A DNA stretch of 64,000 nucleotides, from contig CAVUVW010000021.1 of NCBI GenBank assembly GCA_963745035.1, forward strand, positions 128,001 to 192,000, read 5' to 3'. Both the position numbers and the translations under genes were made by a program. Under the pieces are notes generated by a model that was not told the origin of the DNA, did not search any database, and was given only the letters and a program-made list of their open reading frames with translations. Within the stretch, counting starts at the first letter, position 1, and each line of letters opens with the position of its first letter. Positions 11,861 through 16,612 of this stretch are shown piece after piece. This DNA is from an uncultured delta proteobacterium. GTDB taxonomy: Bacteria > Desulfobacterota > Binatia > UBA9968.

Positions 11861-12826
11861 ATGAAAGTTGTTCGCTGCGGCTTTTTACTGCTTTGTCTGA
11901 TGCTGCCGTCCACCGGATTCGCGACGACGGTGAACGTGGCGGTGCCGAGTTTCAGCATGTCTCTGGTCGCTTTCATGGCGGCGAAGGAGAAAGGCTACTA
12001 CCGGCAGGAGGGGCTCGACGTCAATTTTGTGCTGATGCCGGCGGCAATTGCGAGCAGGGCTTTGATCGCGGGGAATGTGGATTTTGCGACGGTGGGCGGA
12101 TCGGCTTTGACTGCGGCCCTCGGCGGCGCGCCGCTGCGGCTGCTGTTCAGCTCGTTCAATCGGTCGCTCTTCTGGCTTTATTCGCGGCCGGAGATCACCG
12201 ACGTGAAAGAGCTCAAGGGAAAGAAAATCGGCGTGTCGAGCATCGGCTCCGGACCGGACTCGATGGTGCGCGATCTGCTGCGAAGCCACGGTTTGCAAGG
12301 CGGAAAGGACGTCGCCATCCTGGCCGTCGGTGTGGACTCGAGCCGGTATGCGTCGCTGCTCAACAATCTGACCGACGCGGTGGTCTTGTCGACGCCGTAC
12401 AATTTCACCGCCCAGGACGCCGGATTCAAAGAACTGGTTTCCTTCGTGAAGCACGACTGGATCGAGCTCCAGGGCTGCATCGTCACGCGTGAAGCGATGC
12501 TGAAGAGCAACCCTGCTCTGGTCGAGAAGTATACCTTGGCAACGCTCAAGGGCCTGCTGAGCGCGCGCGGCAATCGCGCGGCGACCCTGCCGGTCGTCGC
12601 CAAGATGATGAAAGTGAAGCCCGAACTGGCGGCCCGCATCTACGATCTTTCGCTGCCCGCGATGACGAGTCACGGCGAATTGACCGAGGATGTGCAATCG
12701 AAGGCGATCGAGCACGTCGTGAAGCAGATGAACCTCAAAGAACCGCCGAGCTTGCAGCGGATCTACGACTTCGCGCCGCTCGAAAAGGCGCGCCGGCAAC
12801 TGGAGTCGCAGGGCTGGAAGCCGTGA
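11861..12826 (+). CDS. NitT/TauT (SsuA/THI5-like) substrate-binding protein
   Basis: Signal peptide, AKEKGYYRQEGLDV, LKGKKIGVSSIGS. Confidence 0.9.
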   Translation: MKVVRCGFLLLCLMLPSTGFATTVNVAVPSFSMSLVAFMAAKEKGYYRQEGLDVNFVLMPAAIASRALIAGNVDFATVGGSALTAALGGAPLRLLFSSFNRSLFWLYSRPEITDVKELKGKKIGVSSIGSGPDSMVRDLLRSHGLQGGKDVAILAVGVDSSRYASLLNNLTDAVVLSTPYNFTAQDAGFKELVSFVKHDWIELQGCIVTREAMLKSNPALVEKYTLATLKGLLSARGNRAATLPVVAKMMKVKPELAARIYDLSLPAMTSHGELTEDVQSKAIEHVVKQMNLKEPPSLQRIYDFAPLEKARRQLESQGWKP

Positions 12827-12880
12827 GCAGAGGGAGAATCGACGGATGTGCTTCATTTCACCACGAAGGGCACGAAGAGC

Positions 12881-14554
12881 CCAGCGCGGCCGAGCCGCAA
12901 CCAAAATGACAGATTGGTTTCATTGGTGTAAACGGTGCTCATGTCTACGATATACAATGCACCGACGAAAGAGGCTGCGCATGCCTTTGTACAGCGTCAC
13001 AAAAGCGATGTCATCGGAGTTTTGCACGGTTGGGATCGATTGCGACTGCAAGGCACGCTTCGAAGTCTCTATTACCAGCCGGTGATGGAAGAGTACCTGA
13101 GGCAAGCAGGAGTTTTGTGGAAAGATTTCAAAATCTTCGCCACCACACTGACGGCTCGTGTGCGCCAAGCGGCAGTGGATCTGGCAGCGAAGCATCAGCG
13201 GCCGATGCTTTATCTTAACTCCAGCCGCACACGCAAGGAGGACGAGGCTCGCAAGATCCAGCAGCGTGACCAGATTGAGTTGGGGCTGATTGCTGTGTTT
13301 AGTTGCGTGGAGCCGTGCCGTACGTGGTTTTTGCGCGGCAATCGTATTACCCGAAAGCTTGAGCTTAGGCTTGAATGGGGCAAGTGCATCCACCTGTACT
13401 TTTACTGGATGCATGAACAATTGGGATTTTTGCATCTTCGGTTGCAGACTTGGTTTCCTTTTCTGATTCAAATTTGTCTCAACGGACGAGGATGGCTGGC
13501 CCGGCAGATGGATCAGAAAAAGCTGCGCTATCGGCGAGAGGATAACTGTTTTCCGTGGATTGACGATGTCTCGCGCGCCCAAGCACTGATGGATCAGCAA
13601 CACCGCACCAATTGGCCCGTGCTTTTGCACCCACTGCTCAAAAAGTGCCACCCTTTGCACGCCGAGATTAGCCGTCCCATTGAGCGTGACTACTACTGGA
13701 CGGCGGCCGAGACCGAGTACGCCACCGATGTTATGTTTCGTGACCGGGCCGCGCTCGGACGCATTTATCCCGCCTTGGTGCATCACGCGGTGATGACGTT
13801 TGGCAGTGAACAAGTGCTGCGGTTTATGCACCGCTCGGGACAGGTGGGTCTCCAAGAGGTGCAAAGCGATCGGCGTCGCTGGCCTGACGGCGTCCGAGTC
13901 AAGCACTGGGTCAATAAGAACTCGCTTAAATGCTATGATAAGGGCAGTGTCTTGCGCGTTGAGGCAACGATCAATGAACCGAGAGATTTTCGCAGCTTTC
14001 GCGCCGCGGAGAAAAGTCCTGGCGGCCCTAAGCGCTGGCGCGAACTGCGCCGCAGCGTATCTGACTTTCACCGACGCTCTGAAGTGAGTCGGAAAGCCAC
14101 CGAGCGATACCTTACCGCTCTGGCTTGTGTCCATGTGCAAACCCGGCTCGCCGAGCAAACCGCGCAAGTCTGCCGGCCCGTACGGCGGTACGGACGCCGT
14201 TACCGAGCGCTTAATCCTCTGGGAGAAGGCGATGCTCAACTCATGACCATCGTCAACCGTGGAGAATTTTCGCTCAACGGGTTTCGCAACCGTGACCTGC
14301 GTTCCCATCTCTACCCTGCGATCAAGGACAAACAAAAGCAACACACAGAAATGGCGGCAGTGGGACGTCGCTTGCGGCTGTTGCGGGCGCATGGCTTGAT
14401 TGCAAAAGTGCCCAAAACGCACCGTTACATCGTTACTGAAAAAGGTCGCAACATCATCACGGCGTTGTTGGCCGCGCGTAACGCAAGCACTGAGAAACTC
14501 ACAGCTTTGGCCGCGTGATTTGCGCAGATGGAGAAAATTTTCAAGCATAGTAGT
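12881..14554 (+). mobile_element. unclassified single-gene mobile element inserted in a REP-like repeat
   Basis: Removing it restores TTCACCACGAAGGGCACGAAGAGC|ACGAAGG, matching the intact repeat at 16281-16310; no TIR or clear TSD; left-end hairpin GCGGC-CGA-GCCGC. Confidence 0.75.
12935..14518 (+). CDS. putative transposase / Rep-like protein with C-terminal winged helix
   Basis: 527 aa; NSLKCYDKGSVLRVEATIN motif; GFRNRDLR...RLRLLRAHGLIAKVPKTHRYIVTEKG. Confidence 0.7.
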   Translation: MLMSTIYNAPTKEAAHAFVQRHKSDVIGVLHGWDRLRLQGTLRSLYYQPVMEEYLRQAGVLWKDFKIFATTLTARVRQAAVDLAAKHQRPMLYLNSSRTRKEDEARKIQQRDQIELGLIAVFSCVEPCRTWFLRGNRITRKLELRLEWGKCIHLYFYWMHEQLGFLHLRLQTWFPFLIQICLNGRGWLARQMDQKKLRYRREDNCFPWIDDVSRAQALMDQQHRTNWPVLLHPLLKKCHPLHAEISRPIERDYYWTAAETEYATDVMFRDRAALGRIYPALVHHAVMTFGSEQVLRFMHRSGQVGLQEVQSDRRRWPDGVRVKHWVNKNSLKCYDKGSVLRVEATINEPRDFRSFRAAEKSPGGPKRWRELRRSVSDFHRRSEVSRKATERYLTALACVHVQTRLAEQTAQVCRPVRRYGRRYRALNPLGEGDAQLMTIVNRGEFSLNGFRNRDLRSHLYPAIKDKQKQHTEMAAVGRRLRLLRAHGLIAKVPKTHRYIVTEKGRNIITALLAARNASTEKLTALAA

Positions 14555-14570
14555 ACGAAGGTCGAAGGGG

Positions 14571-14653
14571 TTCACCGCGGAGGCGCGGAGTACGCGGAGA
14601 TTAGAGTTTTGATTAACCATTTCCAAGTCTGCGGACTCGGCGTCTCTGCGGTG
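14571..14653. repeat. REP-like inverted doublet
   Basis: CACCGCGGAGGCGCGGAGTACGCGGAG ... TCTGCGGACTCGGCGTCTCTGCGGTG. Confidence 0.8.
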
Positions 14654-14735
14654 CAATGTTCTTTGCCGCTGTGTCCCGCAAGTCCCAAAGGCGCTAAGAG
14701 GATCTAAGATTCATTTCACCACGAAGGACGCAAAG

Positions 14736-16223
14736 ATGGCGGAATCGAAATTCAATATTCTGGAAACGACGATCGAAGACATCCACCGCGGTTATGCCGC
14801 AGGAGAATTGACCTGCCGTCAGCTTGTCCAGGCATACCTGGACCGCATCGCGGCTTACGACAAGCAGGGCCCGGCGCTCAACACGATCATCACGCTCAAC
14901 GCGCAGGCGATCGAAGAGGCCGAGCGGCTCGATGCGCAATACAAAGCTTCCGGTTCGACGGGGCCGCTCCACGGCATTCCCGTCATCGTCAAAGATCAGG
15001 CGGATGTAAAAGGGATGCCGACGACCCTCGGGTCGGTTTTGTTCAAAGACTATTTTCCCGACCGCGATTCGTTCGTCGTCGAGCGGCTGAGGAAAGCCGG
15101 CGCGGTGATCCTGGGCAAATCCGCGCTCGGCGAAATGGCGGGCGGCGACACGCACGGCTCACTCTTCGGCTCGACCCGAAACCCGTACGACTTGGAGCGC
15201 ACGGTCGGCGGTTCGTCGGGCGGCTCTGCCGCCGCCGTAGCTGCGAATTTTTGCGCCGTGGCGATCGGGCAGGAGGGCTTGGCATCGATCCGCCGGCCGG
15301 CGGCGTGGAATTCGGTCGCCGGCATGCGCACCAGCGCCGGGCTGGTGAGCCGGGGCGGCGTGTACGGCGGCTGGCCGTCGCTCGCGGGATCGCTGGGGCC
15401 GATGACTCGAACGATCGCCGACTCGGCCGCGCTCCTGGACGTGATCGTCGGCTACGATCCCGAAGATCCGCAGACCGCCTACGGGGTCGGGCACGCGCCG
15501 GCGAGCTTCAAGAAATTTCTCGACAAAGACGGTCTCAAAGGCGCGAGGCTCGGTATTCTGCGCGAGCCCATGGGCATCGACTCGGAACCGGAGTCGGACG
15601 ACTTCCGCAAAGTGGACGAAGTGTTCGGCAAGGCGGTCAACGACCTCAAGGCCGCGGGCGCGGAGGTTATCGATCCGATCGTGATCCCGAAGCTGAAAGA
15701 GCTGCTCGCGAAGCGAGCGGCAGGGCCGGGGGAGGGCGAGCAGTCGTTCAAAAACTATTTTGGTCGAAGCAAGAACCCGCCGTTTCAGTCGATCGCTGAA
15801 GCCGTCGCATCACCCGAATTCGCCAAAGTTTCGCGCAACGCCCAGGTCCGCATGAAAGCGTCGCAGGACGCAAACAAACACTATCAGGCTCTGCTGGCGC
15901 GCGAAGAGCTGATGACCCATTTGCTGAAGACGATGGCGGATCATCGGCTCGATGCGATCGTGCATAAAGCCGTGGAGCATCAGCCGACGTTGATCAGCGA
16001 AGGGCTAAAACCGCCCTACGTGAACTACAAAGGCGCGCCGCACCTGAACACTTTCCTGGTTTTTGTTCCGTCGGTGGTCGTGCCTGCCGGCTTTACGCGC
16101 GACGATCTTCCGGCCGGCATCGTCTTTCTCGGGCGGCCCTACGACGACGGCAACATGCTCAAGTTCGCCTACGCGTATGAGCAGGCGACGAAGCACCGCC
16201 GGCCGCCGAGTTTTGGAGGATAA
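14736..16223 (+). CDS. amidase signature family protein
   Basis: GPLHGIPVIVKD, GGSSGGS, ASIRRPA. Confidence 0.93.
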   Translation: MAESKFNILETTIEDIHRGYAAGELTCRQLVQAYLDRIAAYDKQGPALNTIITLNAQAIEEAERLDAQYKASGSTGPLHGIPVIVKDQADVKGMPTTLGSVLFKDYFPDRDSFVVERLRKAGAVILGKSALGEMAGGDTHGSLFGSTRNPYDLERTVGGSSGGSAAAVAANFCAVAIGQEGLASIRRPAAWNSVAGMRTSAGLVSRGGVYGGWPSLAGSLGPMTRTIADSAALLDVIVGYDPEDPQTAYGVGHAPASFKKFLDKDGLKGARLGILREPMGIDSEPESDDFRKVDEVFGKAVNDLKAAGAEVIDPIVIPKLKELLAKRAAGPGEGEQSFKNYFGRSKNPPFQSIAEAVASPEFAKVSRNAQVRMKASQDANKHYQALLAREELMTHLLKTMADHRLDAIVHKAVEHQPTLISEGLKPPYVNYKGAPHLNTFLVFVPSVVVPAGFTRDDLPAGIVFLGRPYDDGNMLKFAYAYEQATKHRRPPSFGG

Positions 16224-16240: not shown

Positions 16241-16612
16241 TTCTCTCGCCAAGGCGCAAAGGCGCCAAGGGAATGAAAGATTCACCACGACGGCGCGAAG
16301 AGCACGAAGGTTTTAGAAACAAAGATCTCACCGCGGAGGCGCAGAGTACGCCGAGATGAACGTTTCATCATTTTTTCACTCTGCAAGCTCGGTGTCTCGG
16401 CGGTGCAATGTTCTTTCCCGACAAGGCGCAAACGCGCCAAGTGACAGTGAAGTTTCATCCCAACATGGGAGATCACCACGAACCCGCCAAGGGCACAAAG
16501 TTCAGTCAGAAAGAATTCACCGCGGAGGCGCAGAGTACGCCGAGGAAAAACTTTCTAACTCTGCGAGCTCAGCGTCTCTGTGGTGTAATGTTCTTTTCTC
16601 GCGCGCTTGGCG
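16241..16612. repeat. cluster of REP-like repeats
   Basis: Multiple CACCGCGGAGGCGCAGAGTACGCCGAG, CGCCAAGGCGCAAAGGCGCCAAG and CACCACGA arms with inverted partners. Confidence 0.8.

Follow-up and report, generated by a model that had tools for sequence, protein, structure and literature searches.

How does a 1,674-bp segment that carries a single open reading frame (ORF), has neither terminal inverted repeats nor a target-site duplication, and encodes a protein without any transposase profile match come to interrupt a short tandem repeat? The segment occupies positions 12881..14554 (+) of a 64,000-nucleotide stretch of DNA (the window) from an uncultured delta proteobacterium of the Binatia (UBA9968; assembly GCA_963745035.1, contig CAVUVW010000021.1, positions 128,001 to 192,000). 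The answer developed here is that it is a previously unclassified insertion sequence (IS), and that its single protein is a transposase consisting of a Rep_trans-like nuclease core with the TATA-binding protein (TBP) fold followed by a winged helix. We give this reading a probability of about 0.68. The narrower statement, that the segment is a mobile IS with borders 12881-14554 and a CACGAAGnn-type target, is close to certain.

Mobility is apparent within the source genome itself (7.43 Mb, 28 contigs), in which a six-frame search found the protein encoded at three loci with 99-100% identity. A blastn search with 12881-14554 returned three gap-free matches over 1-1674 (100%, 99.76% and 99.76% identity) and no partial copies in this genome. 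Ungapped comparison of the three loci shows that identity begins at CCAGCGCGG and stops after CATAGTAGT, with unrelated outer flanks; each copy has TTCACCACGAAGnnCACGAAGnnC directly before it and ACGAAG directly after it. All three therefore interrupt a tandem repeat of CACGAAGnn at one and the same bond, ...nnC^ACGAAG. The copies sit in ordinary chromosomal contigs, and no other gene travels with the element. Intact CACGAAGnnCACGAAG sites number 48 over both strands of the genome (3.2e-6 per strand position), against 0.06 expected from base composition, and because such sites are so rare, three of three insertions at one bond are not a chance result.

In the window, the left half of the target (12857..12880, +) reads TTCACCACGAAGGGCACGAAGAGC, composed of TTCAC, CACGAAGGG, CACGAAGAG and C. 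It is a tandem of 9-nt units resembling repetitive extragenic palindromic (REP) sequences, and its terminal C is the base 5′ of the insertion bond. After C12880 the element opens with CCAGCGCGGCCGAGCCGC / CCAGCGCGGCCGAGCCGCAACCAAAATGACAG, and it ends at 14554 with the tip ...CATAGTAGT; the right half of the target, ACGAAGG (14555..14561, +), is the remainder of the split 9-nt unit. The first-pass annotation had predicted that deleting 12881-14554 would rejoin the repeat, and exactly this joint occurs in nature. When assembled contigs of four public metagenome runs were aligned to 12700-14750, two runs, from two different studies, contained an empty site in which 12880 is joined directly to 14555 and 1674 bases are skipped. 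One such contig (run X9, record 26) measures 188 nt, of which 151 nt lie on 14555-14705 and 37 nt on the left side; the other (run X5, record 16) measures 98 nt, divided 79 and 19. In both, no bases intervene between the two sides and the joint is free of positional ambiguity ('both' = 0). It follows that C12880 belongs to the target, that target bases are not duplicated, and that natural populations are polymorphic for the insertion.

Another X5 contig represents a more divergent strain with a different repeat arrangement and without the element. The element also assembles as its own contig in X1 (12880-14560) and X5 (12857-14560), at a summed depth above that of the flanks, which fits a multicopy repeat, depth not being a copy number. 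Among 30 other genomes of the genus, no usable locus for an orthologous empty site was found, only partial matches to the upstream gene at 66-76% and many repeat matches. An uninterrupted repeat of the same type lies at 16281..16310 (+; ATTCACCACGACGGCGCGAAGAGCACGAAGG). It had been called nearly identical to the rejoined site, from which one 1-nt indel and two mismatches separate it. Further REP-like variants with the same 9-nt period crowd the intergenic regions at 14572-14660, 14706-14735, 16328-16360 and beyond, with sequences such as TTCACCGCGGAGG-CGCGGAGTA-CGCGGAG and TTCACCACGAAGGACGCAAAG; one overlaps the start of an amidase-like gene at 14736.

Relatives of the protein are abundant, and their distribution is patchy. 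A word-indexed protein search found 6547 proteins at E ≤ 1e-3 among 8000 candidates scored, and an exhaustive search of 1.84 billion representatives found 6380 clusters (50% identity) at E ≤ 1e-3, 3263 at 1e-10 and 812 at 1e-30. None of the 120 relatives listed has a Pfam domain, 'hypothetical protein' is their sole name, and most lie on contigs of 1.7-2.5 kb. Matches are found in 4/24 other genomes of the genus (here several are split or contain stops), in 0/16 genomes from two other families of the order, and in 16/300 other genomes of the phylum, many as fragments at contig ends. Six of 72,556 plasmid records hold a distant relative, in each case inside a large plasmid, the best being a 29%-identical Paraburkholderia gene (NZ_CP014580.1) annotated as 'ArsR family transcriptional regulator'; 0/50,697 phage records match. 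Three near-identical copies, a precise empty site and this patchy, often broken distribution agree with the mobile element proposed in the first-pass annotation. Elements whose protein is 92-95% identical to that of the window (L013-L016) occur in metagenome-assembled genomes (MAGs) labelled Candidatus Angelobacter, Binatia, 'Deltaproteobacteria' and unclassified bacterium, which points to recent lateral transfer or else to short repeat contigs assigned to the wrong bins.

Site specificity extends across these relatives. Nineteen related loci were drawn from genomes that represent species, MAGs carrying the labels Acidobacteriota, Verrucomicrobia, Binatia/'Deltaproteobacteria' and Gallionella. 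The base preceding the junction is C in 21/21 elements, and the right flank begins with RC in 19/19. Of 20 readable left flanks, 14 consist of a C[AG]C[AG][AG]AGnnC unit, with one mismatch allowed, and two more have it one base closer. The right flank opens with the remainder of the unit in 16/19 related insertions; of the other three, L020 and L021 directly adjoin a further member of the family, and L023 carries two additional bases. Left and right halves vary in concert, CACGAAG occurring with ACGAAG, CACAAAG with ACAAAG, and CGCAAAG with GCAAAG. The flanks of homologues thus rebuild repeats, as the proposed repeat targeting implied.

Both ends of the element are conserved as well. The left end (12881..12912, +) comprises CCAGC, a hairpin, AACCAAAA at 12899-12906 and then TGACAG. 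The small hairpin noticed earlier is GCGGC-CGA-GCCGC at 12886-12898 (stem GCGGC 12886-12890, loop 12891-12893, stem GCCGC 12894-12898). Its predicted fold alone reaches only z -1.8, and its support comes from conservation: relatives share the consensus YYAG(C)-stem-loop-stem-AACCAAA, with AAYC after the stem, and the stem is perfect in 18/21 related elements and has one mismatch in 3/21. Stem sequences vary with pairing kept (GCGGC/GCCGC, GCGGCC/GGCCGC, GCGGGC/GCCCGC, CCGG/CCGG), and the loop varies freely (cga, aga, aca, aaa, gaa, tcc, tct, taa, ttaac, acgag, acaag). The right end (14519..14554, +) reads TTTGCGCAGATGGAGAAAATTTTCAAGCATAGTAGT and contains the motifs TTTGCGC and ATAGTAGT, conserved in a by-eye alignment of 18 related right ends; in relatives, TTTGCGC follows just past the stop codon and ATAG(T/C)A(G/A/T)(T/C) stands at the tip. 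No right-end hairpin stands out (folding z -1.0 and -0.6). The reported lack of terminal inverted repeats agrees with comparison of the two ends by eye, no repeat-finding program having been applied. Conservation of the ends goes along with that of the protein over the whole range from 95% to 29% identity, and the signature of hairpin plus AACCAAA persists at the Paraburkholderia plasmid gene.

Solo, ORF-less modules of hairpin plus AACCAAA also occur, at C13(-)214369, C14(+)836336 and C17(+)207842 in the source genome, and 40-100 nt upstream of the element at L013, L014, L019 and L023. They often lie 20-30 nt ahead of a TTCACC(A/G)C... repeat, in some cases followed by a short ATAGC-like stretch resembling the right end, and may be remnants or miniature ORF-less derivatives. 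In two MAGs (L020:3082-3397 and L021:1814-3313) the element abuts a second, distant family member that has hairpins of its own and contains KMYDK..LRVE. Between the two MAGs, a single base differs in the right junction and the next 316 nt, whereas the left flanks are dissimilar, which may mean that the pair moves together or that one element has run past its own end. L045, a 1821-nt contig, has right-end-like sequence before the left-end hairpin and a left-end-like hairpin after the right end, as would result from diverged copies arranged head to tail, or from tandem or circular forms that were assembled together. Inspection had suggested TGACAG...TAAAC in the left end as a promoter, but a sigma-70 consensus scan of 12800-14700 detected none and lends this no support. 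Rfam returned only mir-5729 (E 0.038), a weak match on a flanking palindrome, one of the REP-like variants beyond the element, and taken as chance.

A single gene fills the element. The candidate transposase gene (12941..14518, +) encodes 525 residues from ATG 12941 to the TGA stop at 14516-14518, leaving non-coding ends of 60 nt ahead of the ATG and 36 nt beyond the stop codon. The first-pass annotation had correctly described one element-filling ORF, and probably overstated its length at 527 residues: it counted from GTG 12935, where the ORF listing starts, and ATG 12941 is the likelier start because homologues at 90-93% identity are 525 residues long. Residue numbers used here count from 12935. 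Filling the element and conserved together with its ends, the ORF is, as far as sequence can indicate, the candidate for encoding the enzyme that moves it. An antisense 578-residue frame (12920-14656, minus strand), which extends 100 nt past the right end, was set aside as a mechanical by-product of the G+C-rich coding strand. Contigs from a rhizosphere metatranscriptome library (run X15) cover 13436-13700, 14136-14339 and 14460-14564 with a likeness of 95-100%; those on the ORF may reflect DNA carry-over and expression is not claimed. One X15 contig connects a solo left-end-like hairpin to an inverted right end.

Sequence profiles leave the protein almost without a family. Pfam and NCBIfam at E ≤ 1 gave only weak winged-helix matches at residues 474-511, and no known transposase or recombinase, in line with the earlier statement that no such signature is present. 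Among 45 diverse members, no catalytic-core family was found at E ≤ 10; weak matches to the HTH_45 and HVO_A0261_N profiles concern the winged helix. Searches of PDB sequences with the protein and with a profile gave nothing for the core and only weak winged-helix matches, and an ESM Atlas search of the core gave no usable match. AlphaFold2 with the family alignment modelled the whole protein with a predicted local distance difference test score (pLDDT) of 90.7, and residues 14-400 alone with a pLDDT of 95.3 and a predicted template-modelling score (pTM) of 0.91. The predicted catalytic core (residues 14-400; 12974..14134, +) is a pseudo-twofold domain of sheet plus helices, a TBP-like double domain with long curved β-strands. 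It is followed by a C-terminal winged helix-turn-helix (residues 403-527; 14141..14515, +), which had been foreseen at this place and which VIA-align recognizes at Z about 9 (9.3-7.6 against MarR, ArsR, HxlR and TubR proteins).

Compared by VIA-align with 48,161 PDB representatives, the core has as its seven best matches five TBPs and the sole two Rep_trans structures. The TBPs align over 173-178 residues at Z 8.2, 7.9, 7.3, 7.2 and 6.5 (up to Z 8.4 on re-alignment), RepDE (4cwc_A) aligns over 173 residues at Z 6.8 with a root-mean-square deviation (rmsd) of 4.5, and RepSTK1 (4cij_A) over 191 residues at Z 6.7 with an rmsd of 4.8. These seven matches span the whole core (residues 13-387), whereas lower ones, at Z ≤ 6.1, cover half of it; re-alignment agrees. 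Foldseek found nothing in the PDB at E ≤ 1e-3, but ranked 4cij chains 2-5 (E 1.8e-3 to 8e-3) and gave 4cwe_A a probability of 0.82. Against BFVD it found six models at E ≤ 1e-3 (E 1e-4 to 1e-3, probability 0.72-0.99), including a giant-virus TBP and 'GST REP [Inoviridae sp.]', and it also listed A0A345MNV4 (E 2e-2, probability 0.91). According to the available text of a 2026 study of the archaeal Rep-Arvir family (PMC13107129), A0A345MNV4 is a PF02486 inovirus initiator, Rep_trans enzymes adopt the TBP fold, and the structural matches of Rep-Arvir are giant-virus TBPs and A0A345MNV4.

Motifs point in the same direction. In Rep_trans enzymes, as described in the available portions of Carr et al. 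2016 (PMC4797284) and a 2017 review (PMC5714925), the nucleophile Y191 lies on a β-strand within R189-x-Y191-x-K193, the acidic metal ligands D46, D142 and E214 each lie on a separate strand, and the motif contexts are N' Asp, RxD(xAxD), T/SxY/ExG, YxKxxE and W/LxRxE. An alignment of RepC shows these as F45-D46-x5-G52, R140-L-D142-L-A144-F-D146, R189-I-Y191-N-K193 and R212-V-E214. The element family has F/W33-D34-x5-G40 on predicted strand 26-41, E261-x-A263-x-D265 on predicted strand 254-268, K332-x-Y334-x-K336 on predicted strand 329-336 and R341-x-E343 on predicted strand 339-346, in the same order as the Rep_trans motifs and each on its own predicted strand. In the window protein, the proposed nucleophile Tyr334 (codon 13934..13936, +) stands in K332-C-Y334-D-K336, and R341-V-E343 occupies the strand after it. 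When 45 members that are 29-52% identical are aligned, 14 columns are invariant (D34, R35, G117, E126, Y155, Y157, G164, P175, N183, L188, E261, Y334, R341 and E343). Residue counts over 92 of 150 listed representatives (lengths 470-580 residues) show Y334, R341, E343, E261 and Y157 kept in 92/92, D265, K332 and Y155 in 91/92, E126 in 90/92, K336 in 85/92, and D34 in 88/88 aligned.

The first-pass annotation had likened KCYDK..LRVE to the tyrosine motif of Rep_trans initiators; the TBP-like double domain, the two Rep_trans structures, the inovirus Rep models in BFVD and two further motifs now strengthen that comparison. The argument for a Rep_trans relationship, drawn from a predicted model and from aligned sequences, appeals to whole-domain coverage, the exclusiveness of the match list and the motifs. 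A Rep_trans-like tyrosine nuclease is thus the likely identity of the transposase.

Single-strand cleavage and rejoining with a tyrosine nuclease is how IS200/IS605 and IS91 elements move, and DDE elements differ in this respect. We propose the same for the present element because it combines a single gene, fixed borders, a hairpin, strict site and orientation with neither target duplication nor inverted repeats. The winged helix and core would bind the left-end hairpin and AACCAAA, probably on one strand. Tyr334, assisted by a divalent metal held by D34, E261/D265 and E343, would cut the top strand at both borders, C^CCAGC... and ...AGTAGT^AC, and the protein would become joined to the 5′ phosphates through 5′-phosphotyrosine links. 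The freed 3′-OH groups would attack these links and yield a single-stranded circle in which the right end is joined to the left end, and the donor would be resealed, as after excision, or re-replicated, as after copying. In the reverse reaction, the circle would insert, always in the same orientation and with no target duplication, at C^RC within a C[AG]C[AG][AG]AGnn repeat. Two active sites would be needed, supplied by a dimer, as in RepD, or by a second tyrosine such as Y155 or Y157. For the single-stranded circle as intermediate, we judge the odds to be about even.

Several results weigh against this interpretation. PF02486 is not matched by the protein at E ≤ 1, nor by any of the 45 members at E ≤ 10. 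Profile comparison by hhalign with RepC-type alignments gave probabilities of 0.14% and 0.4%, with narrow templates (effective number of sequences, Neff, 1.3-1.9; one of 10 sequences at 81-93% identity, the other of 8 sequences including three at ~35%). The sole local hhalign alignment, not significant at E 0.15, sets KNSLKCYDK on NRFIRIYNK of RepC, with Y334 on Y191. Structural scores are middling, a best Z of 7-8 being typical of models without a clear match, and TBP, which is not an enzyme, outscores Rep_trans. The proposed residue equivalences follow from motif pattern and strand order, not from superposition. Rep_trans motif II (T/SxY/ExG) has no clear counterpart in the family, in which the neighbouring strand reads G319xR321xK323, and the Arg of Rep_trans motif I is Gln or Glu. 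A second invariant cluster in the first half of the fold, E126 (codon 13310-13312), Y155/Y157 (13397-13405) and R169/Q171 (13439-13447), has no equivalent among the Rep_trans motifs and is not accounted for by that model; it may belong to the same pocket or constitute a separate active site that uses a tyrosine of its own. On the DNA side, the circle junction (...CATAGTAGT joined to CCAGCGCGGC) was not seen in the four metagenome runs, whose assembled contigs drop rare forms, and the empty site may be ancestral instead of an excision product.

The leading alternative accepts both the IS and its transposase and replaces the chemistry: D34, E126, E261, D265 and E343 would make up a metal-dependent site for hydrolysis or transesterification, like that of DDE or DEDD enzymes but on another fold, and the tyrosines would serve in structure or in DNA binding. 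These five acidic residues, all invariant or nearly so, do lie on the sheet, and the link to Rep_trans is structural, of middling score, and shared with TBP, which has no catalytic function. Yet the Foldseek and VIA-align matches listed include no nuclease fold, RNase H-like or other, [KR]xYxK...RxE with an invariant β-strand Tyr is what defines the Rep_trans active site, and the lack of target duplication suits single-bond strand exchange better than staggered DDE cuts. We regard a chemistry without a tyrosine link as unlikely.

It is also improbable that the element is a tiny integrated rolling-circle replicon, whose Rep would occasionally integrate it at origin-like sites and leave chromosomal copies as by-products of replication. 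Such an origin would accord with the function of all known Rep_trans relatives, which start replication or conjugative transfer, with the resemblance of the left-end hairpin to a double-strand origin, and with the occurrence of head-to-tail arrangements. Many homologue-bearing metagenome contigs are indeed element-sized (1.7-2.5 kb), but assemblers give such contigs for any multicopy repeat, and those examined end in chromosomal flanks instead of closing into a circle. The three copies in ordinary chromosomal contigs, the absence of a circular junction contig from the assembled contigs of the four runs, and the rarity of relatives among phage (0/50,697) and plasmid records (only 6/72,556, all inside large plasmids) also speak against a replicon. 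Highly improbable is a third possibility, that the ORF is a DNA-binding regulator or passenger, as the 'ArsR family transcriptional regulator' annotation of the 29%-identical NZ_CP014580.1 relative and a C-terminal winged helix like those of ArsR, MarR and HxlR regulators would have it, and that an enzyme encoded elsewhere moves the 1674-bp unit, for the ORF takes up all of the element but 60 nt ahead of ATG 12941 and 36 nt past the stop, the ends stay conserved along with the protein from 95% to 29% identity, the 390-residue core has 14 invariant residues unrelated to the winged helix, and no other gene accompanies the element.

If the protein is a Rep_trans-like transposase, it departs from known members in several ways. 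With Rep_trans (PF02486; RepC/RepD of pT181/pC221, RepSTK1, NicK of ICEBs1 and inovirus initiators) it shares the curved-sheet TBP-like fold, a distinct domain for DNA binding at the C terminus, action on DNA that contains a hairpin and, as far as the motifs of that family are described in the sources available, a β-strand Tyr in [KR]xYxK, RxE on the strand that follows, FDx5G near the N terminus and a strand with acidic xAxD. It differs in having no sequence-profile match, a core of ~390 compared with ~200-250 residues, no motif II and the extra cluster E126, Y155, Y157, R169 and Q171, and in coming from a chromosomal multicopy insertion with two defined ends instead of a plasmid, phage or conjugative element. 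RepC and RepD nick within the hairpin loop, unlike the element, whose left border lies 5 nt 5′ of the hairpin stem.

A parallel in protein architecture is Rep-Arvir (DUF7845; PMC13107129), which in the available text likewise combines a TBP-fold catalytic domain with a winged helix, has a relation to Rep_trans visible only by structure, and has as Foldseek matches giant-virus TBPs and inovirus Rep proteins including A0A345MNV4. Rep-Arvir is archaeal, serves viral and plasmid replication and has a KHYYM tyrosine context, whereas the element family is bacterial and resides in an IS; as Rep_trans hosts, the same text names plasmids, filamentous phages and conjugative transposons (PMC13107129). 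DUF7845 has no match in the element protein (Pfam, NCBIfam, E ≤ 1) or in the 45 members (E ≤ 10).

In its working, the element resembles two HUH groups. IS200/IS605 elements (for example, IS608, HUH Y1) lack inverted repeats and target duplication, have a subterminal hairpin, insert in one orientation 3′ of a short sequence and leave precise empty sites, properties that the element shares in outline. Its protein has neither an HUH motif nor a Y1_Tnp profile match, is of another fold and is far longer (525 versus ~150 residues), and the right end has no evident hairpin. IS91/ISCR elements and Helitrons (HUH Y2), which like the element have a single ORF, also lack inverted repeats and duplications, insert beside a short specific sequence and use a Rep-like tyrosine nuclease; one composite of the element family that shares its right junction but not its left flank recalls read-through. 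The protein here has no Y2_Tnp or Zn_Tnp_IS91 profile match and no HUH motif, and its fold is TBP-like. Because it lacks the HUH motif and has a different fold, the element is a member of neither IS200/IS605 nor IS91, although it resembles both in its working.

With the REP-targeting members of IS110, the element has nothing in common but its choice of target. REP-targeting IS110 elements (ISPpu9, ISPpu10) and RAYT/REPIN systems insert into or act on repetitive extragenic palindromes, in the partial accounts available. The element protein has no DEDD_Tnp_IS110 or Transposase_20 profile match, and a bridge or seeker RNA is not expected because the non-coding ends (60 and 36 nt) are too short and no Rfam family lies in the element; RAYTs are HUH Y1 proteins. 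For DDE transposases of named IS families, there was no NCBIfam or Pfam transposase profile at E ≤ 1, and an RNase H-like fold is not among the Foldseek and VIA-align matches listed, an unlisted fold not being thereby excluded. In the full-text literature, with ISfinder and subscription journals outside the search, no IS with a Rep_trans/TBP-like transposase or with these repeats and ends was found described.

The best reading is therefore a footprint-free tyrosine-nuclease IS built on an enzyme superfamily new to transposition. To our knowledge, Rep_trans/TBP-fold tyrosine nucleases have so far been linked solely with the replication of plasmids and phages and with conjugative transfer. Transposase classes comprise DDE, DEDD and HUH enzymes, tyrosine and serine recombinases, and Cas1, and a widespread Rep_trans/TBP-fold IS family would add one more. 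If the reading is correct, whether non-HUH rolling-circle initiators can serve as transposases becomes directly testable, and insertion at one bond, in one orientation and without a footprint would offer a compact single-protein system for sequence-specific DNA insertion that is worth trying as a tool. It would also help to explain why metagenome assemblies break at element-sized contigs, and would give a function to thousands of genes of soil and groundwater bacteria now called 'hypothetical' or misnamed 'ArsR regulator'. There is an even chance, in our estimate, that this element founds a new class of prokaryotic transposons with a Rep_trans/TBP-fold transposase, a third independent 'Rep-like' origin beside HUH Y1 and Y2, whose members, or ORF-less derivatives of the left end with its hairpin and AACCAAA, may spread or shape the REP-like repeats of 9-nt period that abound in soil bacteria, much as RAYTs act on REPINs.

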